Part shown: positions 2,874-54,403 of the stretch, piece by piece
How positions within the stretch are numbered: the stretch's first letter is position 1
How the letters are laid out: each line of letters opens with the position of its first letter
Origin: Spirochaetales bacterium
Lineage (GTDB): Bacteria; Spirochaetota; Spirochaetia; SZUA-6; JAFGRV01
Assembly (NCBI GenBank): GCA_016930085.1
Contig: JAFGHO010000067.1
Location: forward strand, 1,041 to 65,040
Direction of reading: 5' to 3'
DNA: 64,000 bases
Notes under the pieces: model-generated
Seen by the model: only the letters and a program-made list of their open reading frames with translations
Databases searched by the model: none
What the model was told of the DNA's origin: nothing
Translations under genes and position numbers: made by a program

Positions 2874-2963
2874 GAGTGCTTGACGGATGAGAGTGTTTGT
2901 CGGATGAAAGTGTTTGTCGGATGAAAGTGTTTGTCGGATGAAAGTGTTTGTCGGATGAAAGTG
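2871..2963. repeat. 17-bp tandem repeat, about 5.4 copies (TGA[A/G]AGTG[T/C]TTG[T/A]CGGA), ending inside the mtaB start
   Basis: Copies start at 2871, 2888, 2905, 2922, 2939 and a partial one at 2956. The last three full copies are identical. Each copy contains ATGA(A/G)AGTG; the final one provides the mtaB start ATGAAAGTG (2955). Confidence 0.9.
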
Positions 2964-4310: not shown

Positions 4311-4668
4311 CCGGGCGGCGCCTGTTGCAGTAGGACCGGGAAGGGAATCACTGACGGTGGAAGAGAAAAAAATAACGGGGAAGGGTGAAATTTTGGATTT
4401 TTATGGAAAAAGAGATATATTGTTTATTAGAAGGATGTACGGCCTTCTCGCTGATTTATAATGTCATAACAAAAACAAAGGGGAAGTGATGCTCGGGATG
4501 AAGAAGTATGGCCGGCAACGGGCGGTGGAAAAGCCTTGCCTGCCGGAGTCGGAGGTTTTTTTCAGGATCGGGCGTGCATACTGAAAAAAATACAAACGGA
4601 AAGAGGCAACCCTGAAACGGGAAAGATGAACGATCGGATGGCAGAGGACGTCGAGGAGGATGAATGAG

Positions 4669-6558: not shown

Positions 6559-6581
6559 TCAATAAAGCAAAGGATGTTCGT

Positions 6582-7730: not shown

Positions 7731-7807
7731 CGGGATGTCAATCGCGGTAGTATGAGTCCTTTCAGAGAAAATGTTTAAAATAATGTGGTGAGGTCCTGTA
7801 AAAAGTG

Positions 7808-7836
7808 TTGACATGTCACGGATAAGTTGGTATATA
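7808..7836 (+). promoter_or_regulatory. Sigma70-like promoter (TTGACA-N17-TATATA) upstream of tRNA-Lys
   Basis: TTGACA at 7808-7813, 17-nt spacer, TATATA at 7831-7836. About 90 nt upstream of the tRNA. Confidence 0.35.
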
Positions 7837-7928: not shown

Positions 7929-8001
7929 GGGCCGCTAGCTCAGTAGGCAGAGCAACGCCCTTTTAAGGCGTGGGTCGAAGGTTCGAATCCTTCGCGGCTC
8001 A
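7929..8001 (+). tRNA. tRNA-Lys (anticodon UUU)
   Basis: Cloverleaf readable by eye. Acceptor GGGCCGC/GCGGCTC with one G-U pair. D-arm AGCTCAGTAGGCAGAGC. Anticodon loop CUUUUAA. T-arm GGTTCGAATCC. Discriminator A. CCA not encoded. Confidence 0.9.
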
Positions 8002-12580: not shown

Positions 12581-12581
12581 T

Positions 12582-14180: not shown

Positions 14181-14390
14181 CCCGCTTCAGGTCATATGAA
14201 ACTCAGGGCGCCGATGGCTGTGCATATATAAACGGATGCAGATAACCCGTCTTCCCCATTCGAATGACGCTGCCTTCCCCGGACAACACCGGCCGGCTTT
14301 GGTTGCCGTGTACCGGCTTCCGGTAGATACATCCCGACAGGTCAGGTGCTGAAATATACCCCGAAGATGATTGTCAAGAAAGGATCGGGC

Positions 14391-27394: not shown

Positions 27395-29800
27395 TCAGTG
27401 GACAACATTCACCCCATACTGCTCGAGGAGGGGGATGATCTCGGAACCGGAATGATCACTCAGCGGATTATCGCTGACATTGACCGTTTCGAGCCGCGGA
27501 AGGTCGATGAGTACGGATAAATCCGTGATACGGTTTGACCGGATATCGAGATTCCACAAGTACGGAAAGCCGCTTAACGGCGAGATATCGGTGATGTTGT
27601 TGCCGCCGAGATCGCACATAGAGAGGTTTCTGTTTCCGGCGAGCGGCGTTATATCCGTTATCCCGTTTCCCGCGGCGTGGAAAAAACTCAGGGACGGCCA
27701 ATTCGCAAGCGGCGAAAGATCGGTAATAGTGTTGTTATTTATCGAAAGCGAATCGAGGCTTTCGATTCCGGAGAGGAATGAAATATCCGTCAGGCCGCAC
27801 TTGTCAAGCTTGAGATCGATGAGTTTGGGCATTTCCAGAAGCGGACTGAAATCGGTGATATCGTTGCCGGAAATATCGAGTCTGCCGAGATTTGTCATCG
27901 CCAGAAGGGGGCTTATATCCGTCACATTATTACCGCCGATATAAAAACCGGTATAACTGTGAAGCAGCTTGTTCAAAACACTCAGGTCACTGATCTCGTT
28001 GTCGTTGAGGTACATATTGGTGAAATAGGTACCCTCGAGAAAATCGAGGTTCGTGATATTGTTTGATTCGAGGTGCAGTGCCCAGATCATATAAAGGTTC
28101 GAGTCCGAAAATGATTCATAGTCCTCTATGGGGACGGCATTGAGGGAAAGGATATCGAGGTCGATGCCCACCCTGCGAAGCGGACGGACACGAGTGATCG
28201 GATTCCGGTCGAGATACAGTTCGCAGAGATACGGGAGGTCGCTGTTGTTGAAAGGACTCAGGTCGCTGATATTGTTTTCCTCGAGGTGGAGGTAAAAGAT
28301 ATTGCCCGTCATGATGGGGGTAATATCCGAGATATTGTTTTCCCTGAATTCCATCTGTGCTATTCCGTCAAGGTCCGATAAGGGCTCCAGACTCGTTATA
28401 TCGTTCCCGTTCATGCAAAGCCTGTCCAGTTCCGAAAGGTGCCTGAGCGGTTCGAGATCCGAGATATTGTTGTCATTCATATAAAGATTCACCAGTGAAG
28501 CCGGTCCTTCAATACCGGACAGGTCGCCTATCATGTTGTTGTTCGCTCTCAGGCTGGTGATAAGGGAGAGTCCGGCAAGGGGGGTAATGTCCGTGATCCG
28601 GTTGTCACTCATCTCGAGTATTTTCAAAGAGACGAGTCCCGCAAGGGCGTCGATGTGCGTGATGCGGTTGTTGTTCATGTACAGTTCCGTAAGGGAGGTG
28701 CAGCCCGAAAGGGGGCCGATATCGGCAATAGTGTTGTTGTTGACGGACAACTCGCTCAGGGAGACAAGTCCGGCGAGTGCGGTAATATCCGATATAGCAT
28801 TATTATCGAGATCAAGGGATGTGAGGGCCGTTTTCCCGGCAAGAGCGGAAATATCGGTGAGTTCATTATATTGCAGTTCACATCCTGTCAGTCCGTACAT
28901 GTTTCTGAGACTTTCAATATTCCGGATAGTATTGTTCGATAGAGAAAGCGAGGACAGGTTCACGAGTGGGGCAAGCGGCGTTATATCGGCGATACGGTTA
29001 TAACCTACATCGAGAGAGGCAAGCGATGTCAGGCCGGAGAGCGGCGATAGATTGGCAATCCGGTTGTGGCCGGCGTAAAGTCTGGTAAGGTGCGATAATC
29101 CCGCAAGGGGACCGAGGTCCGTGACAGAATTACCGCCGCAGGACAGATATTCAAGATTCACAAGATTCTTTATTGGAAGTAAATCGGAAATGGCGTTGTT
29201 TCCGATATAAAGGGTTTTGAGATTGAGGAGTCCGGCAAGGGGTGAAATGTCGGTAACGGCATTGCCTGATACGGCGATGTACGTCAGATTCGCAAGCGAA
29301 GAAAGCGGGCCCAGATCGGCGATAGTGCTGCCGGTGAATACGATCTCTTCGAGGGCGGGAAGGTGTTCAATCCCGCTTATATCCGAAATATTCGGTTGAC
29401 GCTGCCGGAGGGAGGTGATGTTTTCGACTTCAAAGGCGTAAATATGGCCGGTGGACTTGCTGATGGTGAAGCGGATGAGGCTTTCGAAGGCCGGATCGGG
29501 AAAGGTGAGTATTTCCTGCTTCCCGCAATATCCCGGGAATTCGCTTATACTCCCGATATAATATCGAGCCACCAAAAGGGCGTCCACAATGTCGGCCTTT
29601 CCGTCATCGTTTACATCCATGTTTTCAGGGGCAATATTGGGAGGGTTTGTTCCCACATAATACTGCGCTATCAGAAGGGAATCGACAATATCGATACGCC
29701 CGTCATTATTCGCATCGCCGCAGGTCTGCCCGAAGGCGGTCACTCCCGGAAAAACGATTATAATGAAGAGAATCAAAAGGGAAACAACGCCTGGTTTCAT
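27395..29800 (-). CDS. Secreted protein: N-terminal type-I dockerin + ~25 leucine-rich repeats (internalin-like)
   Basis: Signal peptide. Duplicated Ca-binding dockerin segments (GDANNDGRIDIVDSLLIAQYYVG / MDVNDDGKADIVDALLVARYYIG). Then LxxLxxLxLxxNxIxDISPL repeats throughout. Confidence 0.8.
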   Translation of the reverse strand: MKPGVVSLLILFIIIVFPGVTAFGQTCGDANNDGRIDIVDSLLIAQYYVGTNPPNIAPENMDVNDDGKADIVDALLVARYYIGSISEFPGYCGKQEILTFPDPAFESLIRFTISKSTGHIYAFEVENITSLRQRQPNISDISGIEHLPALEEIVFTGSTIADLGPLSSLANLTYIAVSGNAVTDISPLAGLLNLKTLYIGNNAISDLLPIKNLVNLEYLSCGGNSVTDLGPLAGLSHLTRLYAGHNRIANLSPLSGLTSLASLDVGYNRIADITPLAPLVNLSSLSLSNNTIRNIESLRNMYGLTGCELQYNELTDISALAGKTALTSLDLDNNAISDITALAGLVSLSELSVNNNTIADIGPLSGCTSLTELYMNNNRITHIDALAGLVSLKILEMSDNRITDITPLAGLSLITSLRANNNMIGDLSGIEGPASLVNLYMNDNNISDLEPLRHLSELDRLCMNGNDITSLEPLSDLDGIAQMEFRENNISDITPIMTGNIFYLHLEENNISDLSPFNNSDLPYLCELYLDRNPITRVRPLRRVGIDLDILSLNAVPIEDYESFSDSNLYMIWALHLESNNITNLDFLEGTYFTNMYLNDNEISDLSVLNKLLHSYTGFYIGGNNVTDISPLLAMTNLGRLDISGNDITDFSPLLEMPKLIDLKLDKCGLTDISFLSGIESLDSLSINNNTITDLSPLANWPSLSFFHAAGNGITDITPLAGNRNLSMCDLGGNNITDISPLSGFPYLWNLDIRSNRITDLSVLIDLPRLETVNVSDNPLSDHSGSEIIPLLEQYGVNVVH

Positions 29801-30147: not shown

Positions 30148-30215
30148 AAGTAAAATATAAAATCCTATATTTTACTTTAAGGCCGTAAAGTAAAATATGG
30201 AATACTATATTTTAT
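30148..30215 (+). promoter_or_regulatory. Two tandem palindromic operator-like sites (AAGTAAAATAT-N8-ATATTTTA) upstream of or overlapping the fic start
   Basis: Site 1 at 30148-30177 and site 2 at 30188-30215, 40-bp register. Each is an inverted repeat AAAATAT...ATATTTT. Embedded in an AT-rich leader. Confidence 0.45.
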
Positions 30216-30228
30216 GTTGGGGAAAGAA

Positions 30229-31359
30229 ATGGATACAAAGGATTTCATGGCCGGTATTTATAAAAAGGCAGATAATTATCGGTATTTTATGCCTGAAAAA
30301 ATCAACCGTGCATTTATCTGGACAGATACTATGCTAAACGAAATCTTGGAAAAAGCATCGTTAAAACTAGGCGAACTGAACTCATTTTCACGACTTGTGC
30401 CGGATACCGATATGTTTATCCTTATGTATATTGTCAAGGAAGCGGTTATTTCAAGCCGTATTGAAGGAACACGGACTAATATCGAGGAAGCCTTTGCCGA
30501 AGAAAGTGATATCGATCCTGAAAAGAGGGACGACTGGAAGGAAGTGAAAAATTATGTCAACGCGATGAACCAGGCAATTAATGACCTTGAGAAGCTGCCT
30601 TTATCAAACCGGCTTATAAGAAAAACTCATGAGATATTATTGTCCGGAAGCAGGGGCGAAACAAAAACACCGGGAGAATTTCGTAAATCCCAGAACTGGA
30701 TCGGCGGGGTAAGTCTCGGCGATGCCGTTTTTATTCCTCCGTCACATATTGAATTGCCTGAATTATTATCGGATTTCGAGAAATTTCTGCATAACAGCGA
30801 TATCCATGTTCCACATCTGGTAAAGATAGCAATTGCCCATTATCAATTCGAGACTATACATCCATTCCTCGATGGTAACGGAAGGATTGGACGGCTTCTT
30901 ATAACACTTTACCTTGTCGCTAACGGAATCCTGGAGAAGCCTCTGTTGTATCTTTCGGATTTTTTCAATAAAAATAAAACATTGTATTATGACAATTTGA
31001 CTTTTGTACGCACCAAAAACGATCTCAATCAATGGATCAGATTTTTTTTGACGGGCGTTATCGATACGGCGGAAAACGGCGTTGCGACACTAAGGAAAAT
31101 AATTGCACTAAAAGAAACGATCGAGCATGATCATATCATGAAGATGGGAAAACGGCTTCAAACGGGACTTGCCCTGTTGCATGGAATATTAAGACAACCT
31201 CTGGTTTCGGCAAAAGACGTACAGGAAATGACACGTCTTTCTCCAAAGGCCGCAAACGATATTATAGATATTTTTATAGAAAAAAATATACTTGTCGAGA
31301 CCACAGGGTATAGACGAAATCGAAGTTATTTGTTCGAGTCATATATCAGGATGTTTTGA
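30229..31359 (+). CDS. fic: Fic/Doc family protein (AMPylator-type) with C-terminal winged-helix
   Basis: Canonical Fic motif HPFLDGNGRIGR. Alternative ATG at 30214 lies inside operator site 2. Confidence 0.85.
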   Translation: MDTKDFMAGIYKKADNYRYFMPEKINRAFIWTDTMLNEILEKASLKLGELNSFSRLVPDTDMFILMYIVKEAVISSRIEGTRTNIEEAFAEESDIDPEKRDDWKEVKNYVNAMNQAINDLEKLPLSNRLIRKTHEILLSGSRGETKTPGEFRKSQNWIGGVSLGDAVFIPPSHIELPELLSDFEKFLHNSDIHVPHLVKIAIAHYQFETIHPFLDGNGRIGRLLITLYLVANGILEKPLLYLSDFFNKNKTLYYDNLTFVRTKNDLNQWIRFFLTGVIDTAENGVATLRKIIALKETIEHDHIMKMGKRLQTGLALLHGILRQPLVSAKDVQEMTRLSPKAANDIIDIFIEKNILVETTGYRRNRSYLFESYIRMF

Positions 31360-31411
31360 CTTTGAGAATATTTTTATATGCTACTTCTTTATTAACCCGG
31401 GAGACTTGTAT

Positions 31412-32584
31412 TTGAGTAGTGAAAGTAAACAAATAAGCAATCCTTTTTCAACAGGTGGAGGTGGCATATATTTCGAAACACGCGTACAGTCGCTTTTTGT
31501 TGCGCTTATGCTTACGGGAGGATTTGCTCCATGTTTACCATGCTGCCCGATTACCAGGATTAAACTTCAGGGAAGATTTGCCGGATTCAATACTGATGAT
31601 ATGATCGTTTATATGAGTGATACATCGGGTAAGGAACGAAAACTTCTTGGACAGATCAAACATACAATAAGTATAACCGAAAGCGAAGAGGTTTTTAGAG
31701 AAGTAATACAGGCCGCATGGAATGATTATAGTAATCCGGATATTTTTACAAAAAATGAAGATGTTTTTGCACTTATTACCGGCCCTCTCAGTGTGACTGA
31801 TATCAATGATACAAGAACGATACTTGAATGGGCGAGGGCTTCAGGAAATGCAGATGAGTTTTTTACCAAAGTGAAACTGGCAAGATTTAGCAGTAAGCAA
31901 AAGAAAAAAAAGCTGGATGTATTCAAGCTCAATCTAAAGAAAGCTAACAAAGAAAAAGATATACCCAATGAAATTATTTTCGATTTTCTTAAACATTTCA
32001 ATCTTATCGGTTACGACCTTGACATCAAGTCCGGTGTCACATTGTCACTATTACATTCTATAATTGGTCAGTATTCACAGGATAATGCAGAATCAATATG
32101 GACAAGAATTGTCGATGAGGTTCAATCGGCAAACAAAAATGCAGGCACAATAACAATGGATATGCTTCCGGTGGAATTACAAAACATTTTTGGCAAGAAA
32201 GAAATCAATACAATACCTTCTGATTTACCAAAACCAGAGATTGAATCTATTTCTCCAGACTGGACACACCATAAATATGCTGTTCCATTATCAATCTCAG
32301 TTATTGCAGGTGCATGGAACGAGCAAAATCAAATGGATTGCGAGATTGTCGGCAAACTTGCAGGTGAAAATTACGAATCATGGATAGTCAAATTAAGAGA
32401 AATACTTCATGAATCGGAGAATCCTCTTGATTTTCGAAACGGACGCTGGAATATAAAAAACAGAATAAATCTGTGGGATATGCTGGGCTCGAGGATTTTT
32501 GGCAATAATCTGGATACATTCAAGGAATGTGCAATCAAGGTATTAGCGGAATATGACCCTCAATTTGATTTAAAACCAGAATAA
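31412..32584 (+). CDS. Hypothetical protein (no recognisable domain), island gene 2
   Basis: Long AT-rich ORF. Probable TTG start at 31412 with RBS GGGAGA 7 nt upstream; the ORF track extends it to a TTG at 31292 overlapping fic. No signal peptide or TM segment. Confidence 0.5.
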   Translation: MSSESKQISNPFSTGGGGIYFETRVQSLFVALMLTGGFAPCLPCCPITRIKLQGRFAGFNTDDMIVYMSDTSGKERKLLGQIKHTISITESEEVFREVIQAAWNDYSNPDIFTKNEDVFALITGPLSVTDINDTRTILEWARASGNADEFFTKVKLARFSSKQKKKKLDVFKLNLKKANKEKDIPNEIIFDFLKHFNLIGYDLDIKSGVTLSLLHSIIGQYSQDNAESIWTRIVDEVQSANKNAGTITMDMLPVELQNIFGKKEINTIPSDLPKPEIESISPDWTHHKYAVPLSISVIAGAWNEQNQMDCEIVGKLAGENYESWIVKLREILHESENPLDFRNGRWNIKNRINLWDMLGSRIFGNNLDTFKECAIKVLAEYDPQFDLKPE

Positions 32585-32614
32585 AGATTTGCAGCAGGTA
32601 TCCATGGAAAGGTT

Positions 32615-34981
32615 TTGAGTTATTCACGTGATATACGTAAAGGTATGGCAGAAGGGCTTGCCTTGATGGGCACAAGATCAAAATCGTTGATTAATTGTAC
32701 GGAACAAAAACCGGAAGCTGTTGCTGTTCTTACGATAAGAGAAATTTTTGATAAAGCCGGTTGGAAACGCTGGGCAAGTCTGAACGATTTGCTTCCAATA
32801 TTAGCCGAAGCATCGCCCGTAGAATTCCTTACTGCTGTGGAGCAGGCATTACAACAAAATGAATGCCCTTTTGATGAATTATTCGCACAGGAAGGAAAAG
32901 GATTATTGGGAAGTAATTATCTGTCCGGATTATGGTGGGCTTTGGAAGCTCTTTCATGGGATGAGGAATATATAACTCGAACATGTGTCATTCTTGGAGA
33001 ACTTGCATCTCATGATCCTGGCGGGAATTGGGCCAATCGACCAATTAATTCCTTAACTTCGATTTTATTGCCATGGCATCCTCAAACAAAAGCAAATAGT
33101 GATACAAGGATCGCCGCTTTCAAGGCTGTCCTTTTAGAATTTCCCGGAATTGCCTGGAAACTGGTCATTAATTTACTTCCTGAACAACATCAAACTTCAT
33201 CCAGTACATATAAACCACAATGGCGTAATCCAATACCTGGAGATTGGAAACCCAAAGTAACAAACAAGGAATATCAGGATCAAGTTGAAAAATATGCAGA
33301 TATAGCTGTTTATATGGCTGTTACAGATCCTTCCAGGATTAAGGATTTGGTTGAAAATCTTGATAATCTGCCTGAATCATCCTTTGACAGGATATTGAGA
33401 CATATTTCTTCAAAACAGGTAACATCGCTTCCTGAAAATGAACGGTTGCCCATTTGGATAAGTTTGAAACAATGTGCCAGAAAGCACCGGCGGTATGCAG
33501 ACACACAATGGGCTCTGGATGCTGTTTCAGTATCAAAAATAGAAGCGGCTGCCAAAAAGATTGCACCTGAAAGCCCTGAGGGGCGTTACAGAGAACTTTT
33601 TATAAATAGAAGCAATTATCTTTATGAAAGTAATAGTGATATACAAGAACAGAATGATAAATTGAATGAAAAACGACAAAAAGCTGTACAGGAAATAATG
33701 GATAAAGATGGAATTAATGGGATTATAGCTTTTACACATACTGTTGAATCTGCTGAGCAGGTAGGATGGGCACTTGGCGCAATAGCAAATGACGAAATCG
33801 ATACTTATTTGTTGCCTGAATTTTTAACGGATAAGACAGAAAAAATCAAACGCTTCATAAGCATGTATATATTAAATCGATATTGTATATATAGATGGGA
33901 ATGGGTTGATGGGTTGAATCGCTCTCACTGGACCATGGATCATAATTGTCAGTTCCTCATGTGTTTGCCATTTGTCATCGATACATGGCATAGAGTAACA
34001 AAATGGCTAAACGAAGATGAAAATCAATACTGGAAAAAAGTTAATGTTAATCCATATGATTCAGATGATGACCTTGTTTTCGCAATCGATAAACTTATTG
34101 AGGCAGGAAGACCTCAAAAAGCAATTGATTGCCTGTGTTACAGAAAATACAAGAAATTGCCACTAGATAGGGATCGTACAATGAAAGCTTTATTTAATGC
34201 AATATCTTCTGAAGAATCATCGGCTTATATAGATTCTTTAAATGCTATAGAACTTATTAAAGAACTTCAAAACGATCCTGAAGCCGATCCAAACGATCTT
34301 TTTAAAATCGAATGGGCATATTTACCCTTACTCGATTCTCATCACGATGCCGAACCAAAGTTTCTTGAGAAACAACTCGCTTCAAACCCTGGGTTTTTCT
34401 GCGAATTGATTCAACTTGTGTTTAAATCCAGCAAAGAAGAAAAAAATGACATTAATATAAATGAAGGAAGCAAAAATATTGCGGAGAATACATGGAGACT
34501 TCTTCATAATTGGAAAAGGCCGCCTGGAATGAATGAAAATGGAAATTTCGAATCAAAATATTTTAAGTCATGGCTTGAAATTGTAAAAGAAAAGTGCAGG
34601 GAATCCGGACATTATGAAGTAGCTATGAGGAAGATAGGTGAGGTGCTTGTATATTGTCCTGCCGATAAAGAGGGACTCTGGATTGATAAAGATATTGCAA
34701 GAATGCTGAATGAAAAGGATGCCGATCCTATGAGAAGGGGATTCAATACAGAAGTATACAATTCGAGAGGTTTTCATGCAGTTGATCCAAAAGGTAAACA
34801 GGAAAGGGAAATAGCTGGTAAATGGAGGGAAAAAGCATATGCTGTCGATAATGAAGGTTTCGCACGATTTGCCGCATCATTACGCGAGTTGGCCGGTTCT
34901 TTTGAACGTGAAGCAAGGATGTTTAAAAATATATTTATTGATGAATTCGGATTGGTAACTGGTGAGGAAGATACAGACTAA
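32615..34981 (+). CDS. Hypothetical 788-aa protein (no recognisable domain), island gene 3
   Basis: Uninterrupted 2.37-kb ORF, AT-rich, predicted cytoplasmic and largely alpha-helical. Start uncertain (TTG 32615 or ATG 32645). Confidence 0.55.
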   Translation: MSYSRDIRKGMAEGLALMGTRSKSLINCTEQKPEAVAVLTIREIFDKAGWKRWASLNDLLPILAEASPVEFLTAVEQALQQNECPFDELFAQEGKGLLGSNYLSGLWWALEALSWDEEYITRTCVILGELASHDPGGNWANRPINSLTSILLPWHPQTKANSDTRIAAFKAVLLEFPGIAWKLVINLLPEQHQTSSSTYKPQWRNPIPGDWKPKVTNKEYQDQVEKYADIAVYMAVTDPSRIKDLVENLDNLPESSFDRILRHISSKQVTSLPENERLPIWISLKQCARKHRRYADTQWALDAVSVSKIEAAAKKIAPESPEGRYRELFINRSNYLYESNSDIQEQNDKLNEKRQKAVQEIMDKDGINGIIAFTHTVESAEQVGWALGAIANDEIDTYLLPEFLTDKTEKIKRFISMYILNRYCIYRWEWVDGLNRSHWTMDHNCQFLMCLPFVIDTWHRVTKWLNEDENQYWKKVNVNPYDSDDDLVFAIDKLIEAGRPQKAIDCLCYRKYKKLPLDRDRTMKALFNAISSEESSAYIDSLNAIELIKELQNDPEADPNDLFKIEWAYLPLLDSHHDAEPKFLEKQLASNPGFFCELIQLVFKSSKEEKNDININEGSKNIAENTWRLLHNWKRPPGMNENGNFESKYFKSWLEIVKEKCRESGHYEVAMRKIGEVLVYCPADKEGLWIDKDIARMLNEKDADPMRRGFNTEVYNSRGFHAVDPKGKQEREIAGKWREKAYAVDNEGFARFAASLRELAGSFEREARMFKNIFIDEFGLVTGEEDTD

Positions 34982-44801: not shown

Positions 44802-45137
44802 ATGAGGGAACGAAGACGCTTCCGGCGGCTGGAGCTTGATGTATTGGTGAATTTCTCGGAAAAAGCGCGGGCCCGCGCCAAAAATATCAGTCTGCTCGGG
44901 ATCTGTATCATCACCAATATCCCCTTTCATGCCGGAGTTTATCTGAATCTCCTTATTACCCTTCCGGATACTACAACGATTGAAACATTGGGCAGAGTGA
45001 TCTGGCAGAGAAAAATCAAACCGGATGAATACGAGAATGGAATCGAGTTTTATAATATAAACCCGAATGAAAAAAATAAGCTGGATGACTTTATCAGGGG
45101 ATATAATGCGGAGAAGGGGAACGGATCCTCTTGCTGA
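44802..45137 (+). CDS. PilZ domain protein (c-di-GMP receptor), paralog 1
   Basis: N-terminal RRRFRRLELD (RxxxR) and NISLLGICI (DxSxxG-type) PilZ motifs. RBS AGAGGAG. Confidence 0.7.
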   Translation: MRERRRFRRLELDVLVNFSEKARARAKNISLLGICIITNIPFHAGVYLNLLITLPDTTTIETLGRVIWQRKIKPDEYENGIEFYNINPNEKNKLDDFIRGYNAEKGNGSSC

Positions 45138-45301
45138 CGAACAGGCAGGGCATGTTACGGCATCGTCACTTCCCCCAATCCGGCTTGAGAATACCCGACT
45201 GGTATTGGAATATGAATATTCATCTTTTATTTTTGTCTTGATTAAAATCGTTTTCTGAATTAGTATCCTGACAATAAATGCAATGTGAAGAGTAAAGGCG
45301 G

Positions 45302-45715
45302 GTGAAAATGGGAAATGCCGAACAAGAACATCAGCGTGATGAGGTAAGCACCCTCACGGGCGGCAGAAAAAAAACGATCAAAAGCTCGGAATTGCTGCTC
45401 AATAAAGCCGTTCTTCTTGTACTTTCGGAGAAAGAATTCGGAAATGCCTTTGTTATCCGGAAACGTGAGGTTGTCGTCGGGCGCAATAAAAGCTGTGATT
45501 TTACGATTGACGATCCGCTTGTGAGTAATGAGCACTGCAAAATTACGAGTGGTGAAGACGGCAGGTTTTGTATTGAAGATCTACATTCGACGAACGCCAC
45601 CTTTATCAACAGGAAAAAACTCAAAAAAAAAGAACACCTGCTTTATGGAGACAGGATCGTTATCGGTGACACGATTATCCGTTTTTATCTCGAAGAGCAG
45701 ATAGAAGAAAAATGA
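45302..45715 (+). CDS. FHA domain protein
   Basis: FHA core: VVVGRNKSCDFTIDDPLVSNEHCKIT...STNATFINRKKL. Confidence 0.7.
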   Translation: MKMGNAEQEHQRDEVSTLTGGRKKTIKSSELLLNKAVLLVLSEKEFGNAFVIRKREVVVGRNKSCDFTIDDPLVSNEHCKITSGEDGRFCIEDLHSTNATFINRKKLKKKEHLLYGDRIVIGDTIIRFYLEEQIEEK

Positions 45716-45984
45716 GGGCACTTCCCCAAATTTACCGTGCAGGTTTTGGGAAGGATCCTTAGGAAATAATGCCCGATTACGCCTCATTTTCGGGAAATTC
45801 TTATGGCCGTTTGTAAATAAAACTAGTATATTTTAATCGGACGGAAAATGTGAAGAAAAAGTAACGGGGCCGTGAAGTGGGGCGCCCTGTTTTTATCTTT
45901 TAATACGAAAAAAGCAGAAAAATTAATTACTCATGTCCGGTGATGGATAAAACGGGAACGTTCGTTTAATAAAGGAGTTTATGT

Positions 45985-46338
45985 GTGCGGTATAATGTCA
46001 AGTATCCTTATGATTCTGAATCCGGGAACATTCGTATGAAAGAAAAACGGCGATTTGAGAGGGTCAGCCTCGATACCTATGCCAATTATTCGAGTGACAA
46101 AAGGGCACAGGTCAAGAATATCAGCCAGGGTGGGCTTTGTATCACCACCGACCACTTTATCTCAAAGGGTACATTACTTTTCCTGGTTGTTTCGCTTTCC
46201 CGAAAGGGTATGATTCAGGTGATCGGCGAGTCTGTATGGTGCAGAAAAAAGGGAGAAGGAGTCTATGAAAACGGAATTTCCTTCTTCTGTTTGGATGATT
46301 TTAATGTGCGGAAGCTGAAAGAGTATATCGGGTCATAG
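45985..46338 (+). CDS. PilZ domain protein, paralog 2
   Basis: KRRFERVSLD ... NISQGGLCI. GTG at 45985 with RBS AAAGGAG; alternative ATG at 46036 gives MKEKRRFERV, parallel to paralog 1. Confidence 0.65.
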   Translation: MRYNVKYPYDSESGNIRMKEKRRFERVSLDTYANYSSDKRAQVKNISQGGLCITTDHFISKGTLLFLVVSLSRKGMIQVIGESVWCRKKGEGVYENGISFFCLDDFNVRKLKEYIGS

Positions 46339-46858
46339 GCCGTCGGAGAATTGTCCGGAGGAGAAAGGTGGATTTTTTTCCGGCATTTTATTGTTTTTTG
46401 AACGAAAGACACAACCGGAAAGCACGGTGTTTCGGCGGTACCGGTATAAATCATGTAAAAAAGTCTGTTTTCCTCTTGAATAATGGAAATGCATGAACAA
46501 CAATATTAGTGGGGGTTCGTGGCGTGGTAATAGAGAAGCCGCGCCGTGTATGTATGGGGCAAGGATATACGGGAGAGAACCGCCGTACCGGTATGAATAT
46601 CTGCGACTGGTGCATCGGGATAACTGCCTGTATATGGAGAGAATTGGGTGTGTGCAGGAAGGAGTCGAGAAACCTAATGACATAACGCAATAGCAATAAA
46701 GCCATCGACATGACGCTTTTTCACAGGTCTTGATGAAAGAAGGAAAGACCACCGCGTGAAGGGAGGGGCCGGGGAGAAGCGACATGCAGGTGTAGCCGGG
46801 GTTTTATCCGGCAGGATAGAACATTATGGTTATATATCAAGGAGAGGAGGAATTACTA

Positions 46859-47191
46859 TTGAAAGAAGATAGAAGTTTTCCGCGTGTAAAACTGGATGTC
46901 ATTCTTTCAAGCGTAAAAAATCAACAAATCCAGACCGAAAATGTGAGTCAAAACGGTATTTGTATCATCACTGCGGAACCGTACAGCAACGGGAAGTATT
47001 TGAGCAGGATGTTGATGCTTCCCGGCGGCGAAGAGATCAATGTTCTGGGAAAGGTAGTGTGGTGCAACCGGTTCAACAATTATTACAAAAGCGGGGTTGA
47101 GTTTATCAGCATCAACAGTAATGATCGTGAAAAATTAAGAAAATATATCAAGAAGATGATAAAGAAGGAGAAAGGAGTAGTCTGCCGCTAA
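46859..47191 (+). CDS. PilZ domain protein, paralog 3
   Basis: TTG at 46859 preceded by GGAGAGGAGG (8-nt spacer) gives MKEDRSFPRVKLD ... NVSQNGICI. The ORF track's ATG at 46826 is upstream of the RBS. Confidence 0.6.
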   Translation: MKEDRSFPRVKLDVILSSVKNQQIQTENVSQNGICIITAEPYSNGKYLSRMLMLPGGEEINVLGKVVWCNRFNNYYKSGVEFISINSNDREKLRKYIKKMIKKEKGVVCR

Positions 47192-47384: not shown

Positions 47385-48341
47385 CTATTTTATATTTTTT
47401 ACCGTCTCATCTTCCTGCAGCCTGCCCGTGACTAACCTGTTGACGACCGTCATGGCAATAATGATGAGAAAGACGAGGAGGGTGATGGCGCTTCCCTTCC
47501 CGTATCGCTGGGCCCGCTGGAGGAGCCACATGATGTAGAATGCCGATGTAAGTCCCGCGCTTCCCGTTCCCCCCATGTTGAGGTATCCGCCGGTGAGCAT
47601 GTACGGATCGTCGAAAAGCTGCATCCCCCCAATAATACTCAGCGTGACTGCAAAGAAAATAATCGGTATAAGCAGCGGGAGTGTGATGTATATATGTTTC
47701 TGAAGGGTGTTCGCCCCGTCTATCTCGACAGATTCATACAACTCTTCCGGAATCGCCTGAAGTCCGGCAAGGTAAATGACCGTATTCCACCCGATATACC
47801 GCCAGTTTACCATGATCGCTATCGAGGGCTTTATATACTCCTTGTTCCCCAGCCAGTCGATTCGCGGTAACCCGATCGCCTCGAAAACATAGTTGAGAAG
47901 GCCGAAATTGTTTCCGAAAACGTAATTGAAGATAATGGCGACGGAAACGGCGCTTGTTATAAAGGGGAGGAAATAGGCCGTTTTAAAAAAATCCCTTCCC
48001 TTGAGCGTCTTGTTGTTGAGGATAATCGCCAGGGGAATCGCGATTATGTGCTGTGTAAACGAACCGAAAAGAAGCAGCCACCCTGTATTATAGAGGGATT
48101 GCCAGAAAAATTTGTCTTCAAAGAGAAGCTGTCCGAAATTCCTGAGTCCGACAAACTCCATCGGTCCCATGCCGCTCCATTTTTGAAGGGAAAGGAAAAA
48201 CGCGAAAATATTCGGGAAGAATCCGAATATCAGGTAAAGAAGGACGAAGGGGGATAAAAAAAGATACGGCGCAAGGTGCTGCTGATTGAGACTCAATCTG
48301 GCAAGCAATCTCGGCACACGAATGGTTTGTTTTTTTTTCAT
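47385..48341 (-). CDS. Carbohydrate ABC transporter permease (MalF/UgpA-type)
   Basis: 6-TM permease with EAA-loop region (ELYESVEIDGANTLQKHIYITLPLL). Confidence 0.85.
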   Translation of the reverse strand: MKKKQTIRVPRLLARLSLNQQHLAPYLFLSPFVLLYLIFGFFPNIFAFFLSLQKWSGMGPMEFVGLRNFGQLLFEDKFFWQSLYNTGWLLLFGSFTQHIIAIPLAIILNNKTLKGRDFFKTAYFLPFITSAVSVAIIFNYVFGNNFGLLNYVFEAIGLPRIDWLGNKEYIKPSIAIMVNWRYIGWNTVIYLAGLQAIPEELYESVEIDGANTLQKHIYITLPLLIPIIFFAVTLSIIGGMQLFDDPYMLTGGYLNMGGTGSAGLTSAFYIMWLLQRAQRYGKGSAITLLVFLIIIAMTVVNRLVTGRLQEDETVKNIK

Positions 48342-48351
48342 TCGGTTCCTC

Positions 48352-49209
48352 CTATCCTTTCAGGCTTCCCGCGAGAAAATTGGAGATGATTTTTTTCGAG
48401 AAAAGAATGAAGACAAGCAGAAGCGGGATAATCGCCAGCGCGTTTCCGAGCATTTTGGCCCCGTAGCCCTGACCCGCGATTTCCGCTTTCAACTGAAACG
48501 CGGAGAGTGCGGGCGGTATCGTTCTCATTTCTTCTTTTGTCAGCATGAGAAGGGCCCAGAGAAAATTGTTCCATGAGCCGACAAAGGTTATCGTTCCCAG
48601 AACCGCGATACCCGGCATCGAAAGGGGGAACCCTATTTTCAGGAGAATCCAGAACTCGTTCAGGCCGTCGATCCGGGCCGCGTCCATCAGGTCCGACGGT
48701 ACCGTTGTCGTGATGAACTGTGTCATGAGGAAAATGCCGAAGGCGTTCGCCATGCCCGGAATGAACATTGGCCAGTAGGTGTTGAGCCACCCGAACCAGA
48801 GCATGAGTCTGTATGCAGGAATAATTCCGAGGAGTGGGGGAATCATAAGGGTAAGCAATATAAAGGAAAAGAAAAACGACTTTCCCTTGAAATTATATTT
48901 TGCCAGGGCGAATCCGCCCATCGTACAGAAAAATATAACCGTCGATGTCTGCAATACGGCGATAATGACACTATGGAAAAAATTGAGGGCAAAGGGTATC
49001 TGTTCGAAAAGGATACCCCAGTTGACGAGAAGTTTGTCACCGGGAGTGAATGGGGGCGGGATACTGAATATGGTTTTGAGGTCCCTGGTCGCGAGAATAA
49101 AAACATCATAAAAGGGAAATGCGAAAATGACGAGAAGCAGCGTGAGAAAGATGTATAAAATGGTCCTTCGTATGTAAAATCCTGTTTTCCTCAATAACAT
49201 GTTCTTCAT
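48352..49209 (-). CDS. Carbohydrate ABC transporter permease (MalG/UgpE-type)
   Basis: EAA loop DLMDAARIDGLNEFWILLKIGFPL. No substrate-binding protein or ATPase gene adjacent. Confidence 0.85.
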   Translation of the reverse strand: MKNMLLRKTGFYIRRTILYIFLTLLLVIFAFPFYDVFILATRDLKTIFSIPPPFTPGDKLLVNWGILFEQIPFALNFFHSVIIAVLQTSTVIFFCTMGGFALAKYNFKGKSFFFSFILLTLMIPPLLGIIPAYRLMLWFGWLNTYWPMFIPGMANAFGIFLMTQFITTTVPSDLMDAARIDGLNEFWILLKIGFPLSMPGIAVLGTITFVGSWNNFLWALLMLTKEEMRTIPPALSAFQLKAEIAGQGYGAKMLGNALAIIPLLLVFILFSKKIISNFLAGSLKG

Positions 49210-49311
49210 CGATTACTCCTTAATGGCATTAAGGTTTTGATGCGCGTCGATTTCAAGTATAGCATAAACGATATCGTATGGCCAGATCATTTTACTTAAA
49301 AATATTTTATC

Positions 49312-52300
49312 CTATTTTATGTCGATTTTTTCCTGGCCTTCCCAATCCTCCGGCACCCCCGTTTCGGCGTATTCTCTCGCGCGGTCCCGGTACAACCGGG
49401 CCGCCCTGTCGTATGAATCGATGTCGAGAACGGAATCGAAATATTTCTCCGCGAGGACGAAGTCCCTGCTCAAATAGGCGAGAAGGCCTTTTTCAAAGAA
49501 ATCCTTGGTTTTCTGTTTGATCTGCCCGCTTTCGCTGTTATCGAAGATTTCATAGATGGGAACCGAATCGCGCTTCCCCTTTACCTGCACATGCCCCAGG
49601 AAGCGGTAAAAATAAATGCTCGGGTCCTGGAGTGAAAAAAAGATCGATGAACTGATGATGATCGAACCGCCGTACGCCTTTGTCAGGGCCTCGAGGCGCG
49701 CGGCGACATTGACCGAGTCCGAGATAACCGTGCCTTCGATCCGGTATTCGTCGCCGATTGTGCCGAGCATGATCGGACCGTTATGAATCCCGATGCCGAT
49801 CTGGATCGGCGAATATTTCGATTTGACGCGGAATGTGTTGTACGTGGCGACCATCTTTTTCATTTCGAGCGCCGCCTTCAGGGCGTCTTCGGGATTGCCG
49901 GGAAAAATCGCCATGATCCCGTCCCCGATGTACTTGTCGATGTAGCCGTTGTATTTTCGTATCGACGGGCCCATTTTCTCGAAATAGGAGTTGAGAAAAT
50001 TGAAATTCTGTTTCGGCGACATGCTTTCGGAAAGCGACATAAACGAGCGTATATCGCAGAACATGATCGTCATATCTCGCTGGATCTGGTCGCCACGTTC
50101 CACCTCGACGATCGAATCACGGCCGAGAAGGCGAAGAAACCCGTTCGGAACGAACCTGCTGTAGGCGATATTGATCTTGGCGAGCTGGACGTGGGTTTTT
50201 ATCCGCGCGATCAATTCCGATTTGTGAACCGGCTTCGAGATGTAGTCGTTGGCCCCGGCGGACAGACCCTCGACGAGGTCCGATACGAGGTTTTTCACCG
50301 TAAAAATGATAATCGGCAGCTGATGTTTTTCGAATTTCTCCCTGATCTTTTTGCAGACGAGATACCCCGACATTCCGGGCATCATGACATCGAGGAGAAC
50401 AATATCGAAGGTGTCTTCCTGAAGCCGCTTGAGGGCGTCTTTTCCGCTCAAGACATGGACGAGTTCGAACTGATCCGGATCGAGCTGGGTCTTGATGACC
50501 TCATGGTTCACCTGTTCGTCGTCGACGATGAGGACCTTTATCGCTTTTGCCGTAAGAACGAGGGTTTCGGTATCTTCGACCGGAATCAGGTCGCCCTCGT
50601 ATTCGCTCATATCGACGAACCGGGAGGCCTTTATCTCATCCTCCTCCCGTTGCTGGACCTTGCTTATGGGAATGGAAAAGGTAAACGAAGAACCCCTCCC
50701 CACGACGGAATCGACGGTTATCGCGCCGCCCTGGAGTTCGATGAGCTGTTTTGTAATCGAAAGGCCGATGCCCGTTCCTCCGTACGGCCGCGAGAGGCTC
50801 GTGTCGACCTGTTCGAATGATTCGAATATACGGTCGAGCTTGTCCGGCGGAATCCCGATACCCGTATCGGTGACGGTAATAAAGGCTTCCGAACCTCTTT
50901 GTTCAGCGGAAACGGTGATCCTGCCCGATTCCGTGAATTTGATCGAATTACCGATCAGGTTGTGCATTATCTGCTGCAGCCGCGTTTCGTCGCCATAAAC
51001 AAAAGGGAAATCCTTCGGGATATTGTTTTCAAGCGAAATATCCTTCTGCGCGACCATTGGCCGCGAAAACACGAATACCACGTCGCATACCTCCCGCAGA
51101 TCGACCGGTTTTTTCTGAATCACCAGTTCTTTCTTTTTCATTTTCGAGAAATCGAGAATATCGTTCACCAGATTGGCGAGTCTCCTGCCGCTCGATATGA
51201 TCAGTGATATGGTCCTTGCCTGTGTGTCATTAAGTTTTCCGCTTGTCCCTTCATAAAGCGATTCGGCCAGTCCGATTATCCCGTAGAGGGGGGTGCGAAG
51301 CTCGTGGCTGGTGTTCGCGAGGAAGGCGTCCTTGAGTTTGTCAAGAGAAACGAGTTTTTCCGAAAGCCGTTCGACCGATGTCAGGGCTTCGAGGAAACGA
51401 AGCGAGAGAAGCACCGACTGGAAGAAAATGAATATAAACAGACCTACGGAAAGAAAGTAACCGATTTTCAGAATATTGAAATAATAGAGGATATCATTGA
51501 CCGCCGTCGCGAAGAAAATGAGAAATCCGATGAGAAAAATCAACGCACCTTTGTGTTTTTTTGCGATACCGATGAGGAGCCCCGCGATAATCGCCATTCC
51601 CACCGCGATGATGCAGAGCTGATAGAACGGCATGATTTCCGAATACACGTGAACCGGAAGCAGTACGACCGAAAAACTGAAGAGGCCGCTTATTCCCATG
51701 AAGACATAGTTCAGGTACCTGTACCATGTATACGGATAGAGGGAGTGAAAATAGAGAGAAAAGCAGACGGCGGCAGCCGGCACGGTGAGGAATTCTGTGG
51801 CCAGCAGGAAATGGTACAAACCGGGAAACATGGTATAAAGAAACCGTTCGCCCATTAAAATGGTTCTCAGACTCAAGGACAGGCAGAAAAGCCCGAAAAA
51901 GAGGGGCCCCTTTTCCTTTTTTCTCAGAAAAAAGAGGGCAAGATGATACAGCCCCATAATGAGAAAACTCCCGAAAAGAATCATTTCCATGGCAAGATTA
52001 CGGGAACGCAGCTGTTCGATCTGTATTTTCCGTCCCATGACAATCGGTGTAAAACCGCCGTGCCTGTCGCTGAAATTGCTGATTTGAAGAATAATGGTAA
52101 ACCCGCTGCGCTGCGGCGTAAAATATTCGGCCCGCGGAAGAATATCCGGTTTGTGTGTTTCCGCCGTGGTACCGATCGTTCCGCTCTGGATCAGAAGTAT
52201 ATCGTCGATATAAAGGCGGTAGGCGGTATCGATCTCCTTGACGTATATTCCGATGAGTCCGATACCGGCTTTGTGATCGACCCTCATTCTGAATGTCGCG

Positions 52301-52605
52301 CAACCGAATACCGGATAGATTTTTTTTATATCTTTCTGTTCGTTCCAGAATCCCGGGCCATGGAAATAGCCGGTCATCTGCGGTCTTTCTCCTCCGGTAA
52401 AATCTCCGGGTGAAAGCAGTCGGTTCCAGTAGAACTCCCATTCTCCTTTCAGCGATACGGGGCTGTCCATATTGAAATCGATATTTTGAAGGTCAAGGAC
52501 CCCCCGTTGCGCTTCAATATCTTCCCCGATACCGGAATCGCATCCGGAAAACGCAAGGAATATGAGGATTACGGGAAGAAATATGACGAGATTCCCCTTA
52601 TTCAT
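49312..52605 (-). CDS. Multidomain sensor: periplasmic 7TMR-DISMED2 + 7TM-DISM, histidine kinase, receiver, class III adenylate/guanylate cyclase
   Basis: Lipobox and signal peptide. GEWEFYW-type DISMED2 start, 7 TM helices. HisKA H-box (NTSHELRTPL). HATPase (GIGIP...GGTGIGLSI). REC (VLIVDDE...VLLDVMMPG). CHD cyclase (MFCDIRSF...YIGDGIMAIFPG). ATG at 52605 with G-rich RBS; the ORF track's TTG at 52623 is less likely. Confidence 0.85.
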   Translation of the reverse strand: MNKGNLVIFLPVILIFLAFSGCDSGIGEDIEAQRGVLDLQNIDFNMDSPVSLKGEWEFYWNRLLSPGDFTGGERPQMTGYFHGPGFWNEQKDIKKIYPVFGCATFRMRVDHKAGIGLIGIYVKEIDTAYRLYIDDILLIQSGTIGTTAETHKPDILPRAEYFTPQRSGFTIILQISNFSDRHGGFTPIVMGRKIQIEQLRSRNLAMEMILFGSFLIMGLYHLALFFLRKKEKGPLFFGLFCLSLSLRTILMGERFLYTMFPGLYHFLLATEFLTVPAAAVCFSLYFHSLYPYTWYRYLNYVFMGISGLFSFSVVLLPVHVYSEIMPFYQLCIIAVGMAIIAGLLIGIAKKHKGALIFLIGFLIFFATAVNDILYYFNILKIGYFLSVGLFIFIFFQSVLLSLRFLEALTSVERLSEKLVSLDKLKDAFLANTSHELRTPLYGIIGLAESLYEGTSGKLNDTQARTISLIISSGRRLANLVNDILDFSKMKKKELVIQKKPVDLREVCDVVFVFSRPMVAQKDISLENNIPKDFPFVYGDETRLQQIMHNLIGNSIKFTESGRITVSAEQRGSEAFITVTDTGIGIPPDKLDRIFESFEQVDTSLSRPYGGTGIGLSITKQLIELQGGAITVDSVVGRGSSFTFSIPISKVQQREEDEIKASRFVDMSEYEGDLIPVEDTETLVLTAKAIKVLIVDDEQVNHEVIKTQLDPDQFELVHVLSGKDALKRLQEDTFDIVLLDVMMPGMSGYLVCKKIREKFEKHQLPIIIFTVKNLVSDLVEGLSAGANDYISKPVHKSELIARIKTHVQLAKINIAYSRFVPNGFLRLLGRDSIVEVERGDQIQRDMTIMFCDIRSFMSLSESMSPKQNFNFLNSYFEKMGPSIRKYNGYIDKYIGDGIMAIFPGNPEDALKAALEMKKMVATYNTFRVKSKYSPIQIGIGIHNGPIMLGTIGDEYRIEGTVISDSVNVAARLEALTKAYGGSIIISSSIFFSLQDPSIYFYRFLGHVQVKGKRDSVPIYEIFDNSESGQIKQKTKDFFEKGLLAYLSRDFVLAEKYFDSVLDIDSYDRAARLYRDRAREYAETGVPEDWEGQEKIDIK

Positions 52606-53560: not shown

Positions 53561-54403
53561 GTGTTTCGGATGAAAGCCATACAAAGGCTGATGTTATATT
53601 GTTTATCCCTCCTGCTTCTCGTCGTCATCGGTTTTGTCGACAGGGTCACCGGATATGAAATATCTTTCTCGATATTCTATCTGATGCCGATCGTCATATC
53701 GAGCTGGTATCTGGGAATGCTGCCCGGAATTGTTTTTGCGGCAGCAAGCGCTGTCGTCTGGCTCGTCGTCGATATCTCGGGTAATACCGCGTATTCCTTC
53801 CCGCTGATACCATATTGGAATATGTTCGTCCGCCTCGGCTTTTTTTTCATTATCAGTATCATGCTTTCGAGACTCAAAAAAGCCATGGACAGGGAGCGGG
53901 AACAGTCGCACATCGATTTTCTGACACGGGCTTTGAATTTGCGGTCGTTTATGGAAACTTCCGCACGTGAACTCCATCGCATGAGAAGGTATCGTCGTCC
54001 CGTAACGCTGATATATCTGGATTGCGATAATTTCAAGGCCGTCAATGACCGGTTCGGGCATCAAACCGGAAATTCCCTCCTCCAGAATGTCGCAAGGACG
54101 ATAGGGGAAAATACGCGTGCAACCGACGCGTTCGCCCGCCTCGGCGGCGATGAGTTCGCGATCCTGCTGCCGGAAACGGACCAAGAGGTCGCCCTCGGGC
54201 TGGCAGGCCGTCTTTCCGGGGCATTGGAGGAATGCATGAATGAAAACGAGTGGCCGGTAACGTTCAGCCTCGGTATCGCGACCTTCAGAAGCGCTCCGGA
54301 GGATGCGGAAGCGATGTTGAGGGCCGCGGACAACCTTATGTACGAGGCGAAGAACCGGGGCAAAAACGGAAGCGTCGACAGGGTTTTCGACGAACAGAAA
54401 TAA
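53561..54403 (+). CDS. Membrane-anchored diguanylate cyclase (GGDEF)
   Basis: 3-4 N-terminal TM helices, then GGDEF domain with intact RLGGDEF active site and substrate-binding NDRFGH. Confidence 0.8.
   Translation: MFRMKAIQRLMLYCLSLLLLVVIGFVDRVTGYEISFSIFYLMPIVISSWYLGMLPGIVFAAASAVVWLVVDISGNTAYSFPLIPYWNMFVRLGFFFIISIMLSRLKKAMDREREQSHIDFLTRALNLRSFMETSARELHRMRRYRRPVTLIYLDCDNFKAVNDRFGHQTGNSLLQNVARTIGENTRATDAFARLGGDEFAILLPETDQEVALGLAGRLSGALEECMNENEWPVTFSLGIATFRSAPEDAEAMLRAADNLMYEAKNRGKNGSVDRVFDEQK

Follow-up and report, generated by a model that had tools for sequence, protein, structure and literature searches.

A membrane sensor kinase/adenylate cyclase gene beside a sugar importer permease pair without a co-encoded binding protein in a Spirochaetales genome

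The minus strand of a 64-kb stretch of DNA from a Spirochaetales bacterium (contig JAFGHO010000067.1 of assembly GCA_016930085.1; the whole stretch is called the window below) carries a gene for a large sensor protein with predicted histidine kinase, receiver and adenylate cyclase domains, followed by the genes for a G-type and an F-type permease of an ATP-binding cassette (ABC) sugar importer. We hold it to be somewhat better than an even bet that a sensor/adenylate cyclase of a common type stands here beside the membrane half of a CUT1 importer for beta-glucan oligosaccharides, which uses an ATPase and a solute-binding protein (SBP) encoded elsewhere. The sensor and the permease pair would then be two separate, physiologically related units lying side by side. 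The pair belongs to a clade of permeases that we found at five loci, and the missing SBP is the only feature special to that clade.

Open reading frame (ORF) calls recovered the three genes at the positions given for them in the initial annotation, which had been made from the sequence alone, with both permease genes directly downstream of the sensor gene and in the same orientation. The sensor ORF encodes 1097 amino acids (aa) counted from its ATG; an alternative TTG at 52623, six codons upstream, would extend the protein to 1103 aa. The intergenic gaps measure 102 bp between the sensor and G genes (49210-49311) and 10 bp between G and F. A protein identical to the sensor bears the NCBI annotation "MAG: response regulator [Spirochaetales bacterium]" (MAG, metagenome-assembled genome) and is also present in run SRR13394437. 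The parts of the locus are the following.

49312..52605, minus strand: sensor gene, encoding a signal peptide/lipobox (C22), jelly roll, 7TMR-DISM seven-transmembrane module, HisKA, HATPase_c, receiver (REC), predicted class IIIb cyclase and C-terminal helical tail (ORF call, Pfam and residues)
51970..52548, minus strand: periplasmic sensory domain, residues 20-212, modeled as a galactose-binding-domain-like or GH2_N-type jelly roll (AlphaFold2 and Foldseek)
51403..51990, minus strand: 7TMR-DISM_7TM module with seven helices (PF07695, E 1.5e-23)
50665..51333, minus strand: histidine kinase core, HisKA plus HATPase_c (PF00512, E 6e-19; PF02518, E 8e-30)
50197..50535, minus strand: receiver domain (PF00072, E 3.5e-29)
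49567..50079, minus strand: class III nucleotide cyclase domain, predicted adenylate-specific, Lys/Thr (IIIb) type (PF00211, E 7.6e-21; PDB matches)
49256..49284, minus strand: promoter-like element in the sensor-G gap, TGGCCA-17 nt-TGnTATACT (promoter scan; kept in L011/L012)
48352..49209, minus strand: G-type (UgpE/MalG-like) CUT1 permease, 285 aa (PF00528 and NCBIfam)
47385..48341, minus strand: F-type (UgpA/GlcT/MalF-like) CUT1 permease, 318 aa (PF00528 and NCBIfam)

Both permeases match PF00528 (BPD_transp_1). The NCBIfam matches of the G permease (UgpE, E 1.4e-30; MalG, 2.6e-12; also GlcU) place it in the UgpE/GlcU/MalG type, and those of the F permease are GlcT (4e-26), UgpA (5e-23) and MalF (4e-20). 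Each protein has an EAA coupling loop that is conserved with canonical relatives (DAARIDGLNEF..GFPL at residue 176 of G; YESVEIDGANT..ITLPLL at residue 202 of F), and both align colinearly with these relatives; the locus therefore holds two different BPD_transp_1 proteins with an EAA loop each, as a CUT1 permease pair does. The initial annotation had described MalG followed by MalF as a reversal of the usual order. The G-F order itself was upheld by the NCBIfam assignments; it is no anomaly of this locus, however, given that all SBP-bearing relatives of at least 50% identity are arranged SBP-G-F.

This arrangement emerged from a survey in which the contexts of the closest homologues of the sensor and of the G permease were examined, two contig collections were scanned, and G, F and SBP genes were mapped by tblastn (L numbers denote loci, and P numbers denote sensor homologues). 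The loci sort by their identity to the window G permease as follows.

At most 47% identity (L015, L101-L104, L115): SBP-F-G where an SBP is present (L101, L102, L104, L115); L015 and L103 show F-G only
50-56% identity (L093, L094 from Spirochaeta cellobiosiphila, L095, L097, L098, L100): SBP-G-F, in a cluster without an ATPase gene
66-88% identity (the window, L011/L012, L002, L008/L009, L010): G-F, no SBP

The SBPs of the six SBP-G-F loci are homologous to one another, and the five SBP-less loci fall in a single, monophyletic clade of 14 leaves in a neighbor-joining tree. Because the relatives at 50-56% identity are SBP-G-F clusters with no ATPase gene, both the G-then-F order and the absence of an ATPase are, as judged from these comparisons, inherited traits of a spirochete subfamily. 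The window pair resembles the canonical SBP-G-F loci (L093, L094, L095, L097 and L098) in the identity and colinearity of G and F, in gene order and in having no operon ATPase. It differs in that those loci carry one or two SBP_bac_1 genes directly upstream, together with glycoside hydrolase (GH) or phosphorylase genes and LacI or ROK regulators, whereas the window has signaling genes instead.

The neighbors of the SBP-G-F loci, which include GH16 and GH3 (L093), GH1 (L095) and the LacI or ROK regulators, point to the substrate. A GH149 homologue of about 1100 aa, with no Pfam family and a strong match to the beta-1,3-oligosaccharide phosphorylase 6hq6 (E 5e-242), accompanies related SBP-G-F loci and some SBP-F-G loci (L094, 1326-4748; L096, ~2010-5345; L097, 4210-7512; L098, 11647-14970; also L157 and L128), which suggests that these are laminari-oligosaccharide utilization loci. 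From such neighbors we infer that the likely cargo of the subfamily is beta-glucan oligosaccharides, with laminari-oligosaccharides foremost.

A scan of the genome contigs with G returned a single clade member (L013, from the contig that also carries L010), along with two solitary G genes and numerous distantly related canonical systems, and a scan of the metagenome contigs with a clade profile returned SBP-G-F and SBP-F-G relatives and no clade members among the matches listed. The Spirochaetales MAG Zod_Metabat.353 contains two lone G-type genes, L014 9938-10849 and L018 9926-10816 (54% and 52% identical to the window G), with no F-type or SBP gene within 7-10 kb. An alpha-1,3-glucanase with CBM6/35 modules lies beside one of them, and GH3, DUF389 and LacI genes lie beside the other. 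CUT1 parts seem to be generally dispersed in this Spirochaetales lineage.

The claim that the permeases have neither an SBP gene nor an ATPase gene with them was borne out across the whole window. Pfam scans of approximately 50 ORFs detected no SBP and no ABC ATPase. A Walker A motif and an LSGGQ signature occur together in no ORF of the 64 kb, there is no match to ABC_tran, and tblastn searches in which the cognate SBPs from L093 and L094 served as queries found nothing in the window, L002, L008, L010 or L011. Neither an SBP_bac_1 protein nor a MalK/MsiK-type ATPase is thus encoded with the window permeases, and none adjoins them on either side. All seven CUT1 systems of S. pneumoniae are without an ATPase of their own, and several of them depend on a single msmK gene, which is monocistronic (PMC3302838). 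The window locus is like the MsmK systems of S. pneumoniae and the MsiK systems of Streptomyces in having permease genes without their own ABC ATPase gene; in those systems, however, the SBP is still encoded beside the permeases, whereas here it is absent too.

The pair does not have the appearance of a decaying operon remnant, and we ruled that candidate out: no SBP gene remnant was detectable by tblastn at any of the five SBP-less loci, the EAA loops are intact, and between the window and L011 nonsynonymous differences (pN) in G and F amount to 0.08-0.09 per site against saturated synonymous sites (pS, 0.74-0.79). For G the two values are 0.08 and 0.79, and the ratio of nonsynonymous to synonymous substitution rates (dN/dS) of F is about 0.03; the sensor shows the same pattern, with a pN of 0.13 against saturated pS. 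By these tests the SBP-less G-F pair appears to be functional and under strong purifying selection, and the retained EAA loops suggest that an ATPase is still used.

The gene directly upstream of G-F is a sensor gene at three of the five loci: the window, L011/L012 (sensor 79-86% identical) and L002 (58%). At L010 this position is occupied by a cytoplasmic REC-GGDEF protein, and at L008 by a small lipoprotein of 200 aa (6546-7148, lipobox ITSC), which stands where the SBP or the sensor is found elsewhere. The only Pfam match of the L008 lipoprotein, to PsbP_2, is below threshold (24 bits where 27 are required; E 4e-5), and a homologue of it is missing from the window. Assembly GCA_016934975.1 has its sensor orthologue, P0003 (L006, 56% identical), on one contig and its G-F pair (L010) on another, and P0003 adjoins a GH9-CBM3-dockerin cellulase. 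The sensor homologues P0003, P0005, P0006 and P0007 have no permeases nearby.

The promoter-like element in the 102-bp gap is followed by a Shine-Dalgarno sequence, and L011/L012 has its equivalent (TGGCCA, 17 nt, TGnTATAAT, plus Shine-Dalgarno), conserved although the flanking synonymous sites are saturated. In L002, the gap between the sensor and G genes is 700 bp. Because a conserved promoter-like element sits in the gap, the permeases are probably an independent transcription unit with a putative promoter of their own, and co-transcription with the sensor is doubtful. The sole Rfam match in the window at the gathering threshold is a tRNA (7929-8001); with none close to the locus, a riboswitch or other RNA was dropped as a candidate.

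Of the two explanations that the initial annotation had offered for the incomplete transporter, the substitution of the sensor for the binding protein was not sustained, given that the same SBP-less pair also occurs behind a REC-GGDEF protein (L010) and a 200-aa lipoprotein (L008) and has its own putative promoter. The other, in which genes elsewhere supply the missing components, is favored, since the canonical relatives are likewise without an operon ATPase (cf. PMC3302838) and the EAA loops have been kept. A looser functional relation, in which both units serve glycan foraging, is plausible.

The sensor begins with a signal peptide and the lipobox cysteine C22, and its five Pfam domains (7TMR-DISM_7TM, HisKA, HATPase_c, Response_reg and Guanylate_cyc) each score above the gathering threshold. 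The presence of the 7TMR-DISM_7TM module is indicated by a PF07695 match of 84 bits against a cut-off of 29, spanning profile positions 4-203 of 205, and seven hydrophobic helices lie between residues 204 and 409. The kinase core has H434 (HisKA), N553, the G1 box DTGIGI at 580 and the G2 box GGTGIGL at 609, as a hybrid kinase should, and the receiver has an acidic pocket (D694/D695), the phospho-acceptor D739, T769 and K791. In the cyclase domain we found the metal-binding aspartates D851 and D895, the adenine-defining K891, T959 (replacing the class IIIa Asp), N966 and R970; the catalytic residues are conserved across 31 homologues, and the loss of such residues on alignment, a possibility that the initial annotation had raised, was not seen. 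The best PDB matches of the domain are Synechocystis Cya2 (2w01), P. aeruginosa CyaB (3r5g), photoactivated adenylate cyclases and Spirulina CyaC (1wc0). K891 and T959 align with the Lys and Thr of CyaB 3r5g, whereas Cya2 2w01 has Glu at the Lys position; guanylate cyclases carry residues of the Glu/Gly type at these substrate-defining sites. Because the Lys/Thr pair aligns with that of CyaB and these residues are kept, the sequence assigns the domain to the class III adenylate cyclases, subclass IIIb. By their residues, the kinase, receiver and cyclase appear to be catalytically complete; phosphotransfer and the synthesis of cyclic AMP (cAMP) by a homodimer are predictions only.

The earlier domain reading of seven transmembrane helices, a full histidine kinase core, a receiver and a class III cyclase is thus supported by Pfam and by the key residues. 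Its description as a complete circuit in one polypeptide holds at the level of domains; it is not special, given that the design is known from CyaC and ACR. In cyanobacterial CyaC, an intrinsic kinase phosphorylates the proximal receiver and the type IIIb cyclase is activated (PMC3009899). CyaC of Spirulina/Anabaena likewise has, in a single polypeptide, a kinase core and a receiver directly N-terminal of a type IIIb cyclase, and its catalytic domain (1wc0) matches the sensor cyclase at E 1e-15. CyaC is soluble, however, with GAF domains and an extra N-terminal receiver, whereas the sensor has a periplasmic jelly roll and seven transmembrane helices, and its activity and regulation are predicted only. 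Dictyostelium ACR shares with the sensor the seven transmembrane helices, the histidine kinase, the receiver(s) and the C-terminal cyclase (PMC3009899); it has no jelly-roll ectodomain, and the sensor retains H434, D739, T769 and K791. In 7TMR-DISM receptors such as Pseudomonas RetS and LadS and Sinorhizobium RgsP, PF07695 follows an extracytoplasmic beta-rich domain predicted to bind carbohydrates, and the outputs are a histidine kinase or GGDEF/EAL (PMC6107284, PMC8846402). The sensor too has the PF07695 module behind an extracytoplasmic beta-rich domain; it differs in that its ectodomain is not detected as 7TMR-DISMED2 and its output consists of a kinase, a receiver and an adenylate cyclase.

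The architecture is common and the family widespread. A search for sensor homologues yielded 6475 proteins at E<=1e-20, and approximately half of the best 120 of these have the exact 7TMR-DISM_7TM/HisKA/HATPase_c/REC/Guanylate_cyc layout; in the remainder of the 120, this core of kinase, receiver and cyclase follows sensors of the PAS, Y_Y_Y/propeller, dCache or CHASE type. Grouped at 90% identity, homologues with the sensor architecture make up dozens of clusters, which come from Spirochaetota, Leptospiraceae, Anaerolineae and cyanobacteria. Several sensor homologues carry the automatic JGI label "ChiS," which we read as a reflection of the shared kinase-receiver core rather than of orthology. 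In Vibrio, as in other sensor/transporter pairs that sense together, the hybrid sensor kinase ChiS functions in concert with part of a sugar ABC importer, its chitin-binding protein; the partner in that case is a periplasmic SBP, precisely the part that is absent at the window locus. One sensor paralogue or homologue, P0005 (48% identical, also in SRR13394437; L003), is flanked by a divergent 171-aa cNMP_binding protein (7313-7828), a candidate receiver of cAMP, and by a 1108-aa protein (11489-14815) without a family and unrelated to the GH149 homologues.

The initial annotation had identified the periplasmic domain of the sensor as DISMED2. We dropped this label in favor of a description of the fold, given that a Pfam search of residues 20-212 gave no match even at E<=10 and that hhalign of a 29-homologue domain profile against the DISMED2 (PF07696) regions of the remote homologues P0091 and P0116 returned a probability of 1%. 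The AlphaFold2 model, built with 31 sequences as input, is a beta-sandwich with a confidence score (pLDDT) of 93.2. Among PDB structures, Foldseek finds it most similar to the sugar-binding jelly rolls at the N termini of GH2 beta-glucuronidases and galacturonidases (E 6e-7 to 1e-5, TMq 0.45-0.54). The fold class predicted for DISMED2 is of the same kind (PMC8846402), and the modeled ectodomain would resemble DISMED2 in fold class, though neither Pfam nor hhalign placed it in that family. On the strength of the model, the ectodomain plausibly binds a glycan. Orthologues share 37-41% identity in the sensory domain, compared to 63-67% in the C-terminal half.

Cyclic-nucleotide signaling genes are the constant feature around the SBP-less clade. 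GGDEF, EAL and cNMP_binding-GGDEF genes flank the G-F pair in L008, L010 and the window, and at four of the five loci (all except L002) the 3' end of F faces a convergent PilZ gene. In the window these neighbors are the following.

46826..47191, plus strand: single-domain PilZ protein, converging on the F permease gene (PF07238, E 1.4e-13)
44802-45137 and 45985-46338, plus strand: two further PilZ paralogues (Pfam)
45302-45715, plus strand: FHA protein (Pfam)
53561..54403, plus strand: membrane DUF4118-GGDEF diguanylate cyclase, divergent from the sensor gene (PF00990, E 1.3e-38)

The convergent PilZ protein has a single domain in the window and L011 (81% identical) and two domains in L008 and L010 (60% identical). 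The window protein has the RxxxR (RSFPR) and (D/N)xSxxG (NVSQNG) motifs, from which the binding of cyclic di-GMP (c-di-GMP) is predicted only, and a dN/dS of 0.08 points to purifying selection. Outside the SBP-less loci, this PilZ subfamily was not seen among 175 sequences in 2.5 Mb, all SBP-G-F loci included. We treat the association as a lead and not as a result, given that PilZ is encoded on the opposite strand and that the four loci with it count as roughly two independent lineages. The three single-domain PilZ paralogues (34-39% identical) and the FHA gene stand in a row at 44802-47191 on the plus strand. The second and third PilZ genes are 490 bp apart (46339-46825); Rfam finds no match in this interval, and its only ORF encodes 150 aa without an assigned family.

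In the reading that we favor, an extracytoplasmic cue, plausibly a glycan, would control autophosphorylation of the sensor, and an intramolecular His-to-Asp transfer would modulate the dimeric cyclase as in CyaC, with a resulting change in cAMP. The permease pair, transcribed from its own putative promoter, would draw on a shared ATPase of the MsiK/MsmK type and on an SBP from elsewhere in the genome, the SBP gene having left the locus in this clade while the permeases were retained. That sensor and pair adjoin at three of the five loci would most likely mean that both serve glycan foraging and second-messenger control, rather than that the sensor physically replaces the SBP. Several observations weigh against this view. 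That a partner SBP and ATPase are encoded elsewhere is an assumption. The loss of an adjacent SBP is unusual for CUT1 systems, and here it has been maintained over approximately 35% amino-acid divergence. The sensor-G-F order is shared by the window and L002 at 58-66% identity, with all other neighbors different, which hints at more than chance linkage. A scan found no terminator-like site in the sensor-G gap of the window, and read-through transcription from the sensor gene into G is possible. In all members of the SBP-less clade, moreover, the last periplasmic loop of G is longer by an insertion of 3 residues; in MalG the scoop loop occupies this region, and SBP docking could have changed there.

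Two opposed explanations of the adjacency were weighed as well. It is unlikely, though it deserves real weight, that the sensor and the pair are functionally unrelated and that their linkage in three loci is inherited synteny still unbroken. The promoter-like element of the permeases, the 700-bp gap in L002, a sensor family mostly without permeases and the variable gene upstream of G-F would all fit such an accident; what speaks against it is that the three-gene synteny between the window and L002 survives despite saturated synonymous sites and the change of all other neighbors, and that the SBP-less clade recurs among signaling genes. At the other extreme, the jelly roll of the sensor could replace the SBP, with the sensor docking on G-F and delivering or gating the sugar, or the pair could be binding-protein independent; binding-protein-independent MalFGK2 mutants do exist. 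The sensor gene occupies the place of the SBP gene in the canonical relatives, its ectodomain has a sugar-binding-type fold, and both the order kept with L002 and the loop insertion in G across the clade could be counted in favor. We nevertheless regard this as highly improbable. L008 and L010 have no sensor beside G-F, one assembly has its sensor orthologue on a separate contig, and four close homologues of the sensor have no permeases nearby. The jelly roll, moreover, bears no relation to the fold of an SBP, whose two lobes close on the substrate and open the translocator, and the fast divergence of the sensory domain, seen next to its own C-terminal half, contrasts with the conservation of G and F. 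As a structural stand-in for the SBP, the sensor cannot be obligatory.

Second-messenger genes around the clade also allow a reading in which the transporter itself takes part in signaling, either with a signaling neighbor that reads the state of transport, in the manner of a "trigger transporter," or with PilZ gating transport through c-di-GMP. All five contexts have genes from a set comprising the sensor-cyclase, REC-GGDEF, Peripla_BP-PAS-GGDEF-EAL, cNMP_binding-GGDEF, DUF4118-GGDEF and PilZ types, and the convergent PilZ subfamily, with its motifs kept and its low dN/dS, is confined to SBP-less loci in our sample. Because PilZ lies on the opposite strand, however, it is not co-transcribed with the permeases; it is also missing from L002, the loci that have it come from so few lineages, and the upstream signaling partner is inconstant. 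A search of the literature found no published case of PilZ control over a sugar ABC importer, and no fusion ("Rosetta stone") proteins were seen, with PF00528 standing alone in all 120 G homologues listed. We consider such a co-sensor or second-messenger target doubtful. A shade more doubtful is the broader proposal that the SBP-less pairs are a distinct Spirochaetales class of CUT1 transporter without a dedicated co-encoded SBP, coupled to cyclic-nucleotide signaling through PilZ and/or sensor-cyclase/GGDEF proteins that gate or co-sense transport; if it were true, the uptake of beta-glucan oligosaccharides would be directly linked to second-messenger state. Were the linkage to PilZ, GGDEF or cyclase genes functional, direct control of a sugar ABC importer by c-di-GMP or cAMP would be seen for the first time, and genetics could be brought to bear on what is sensed by 7TMR-DISM proteins whose ectodomains are of the sugar-binding type.

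All components of the locus are of known kinds; the new part, a conserved SBP-less clade with a PilZ neighbor, is modest, and there is no striking anomaly. If the reading with partners encoded elsewhere is right, the sensor is one more member of a large, uncharacterized family of 7TMR-DISM kinase/adenylate cyclases, and the parts of CUT1 importers are scattered over the genome in some Spirochaetales. This matters for annotation and for the metabolic modeling of MAGs, in that operon-based counts of transporters would miss such scattered parts or misassign their substrates.

Elsewhere in the window, an 801-aa leucine-rich-repeat protein with an N-terminal type I dockerin is encoded at 27395-29800 (minus strand), and in a related MAG the GH9-CBM3-dockerin cellulase beside P0003 lies at L006 1-1416. 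Because of these two dockerin proteins, Zodletone-type Spirochaetales may carry cellulosome-type modules. The plus-strand segment at 30214-34981 has a low GC content (0.38, compared to approximately 0.50 in its flanks) and encodes a SoFic-type Fic protein (PADLOC E 5e-116; Fic_N plus Fic) followed by 430-aa and 788-aa proteins with no Pfam family; it may be a defense or mobile island. An ordinary tryptophan biosynthesis cluster occupies 11168-15809 (plus strand), with fused genes among anthranilate synthase I, GATase-TrpD and TrpC-TrpF.

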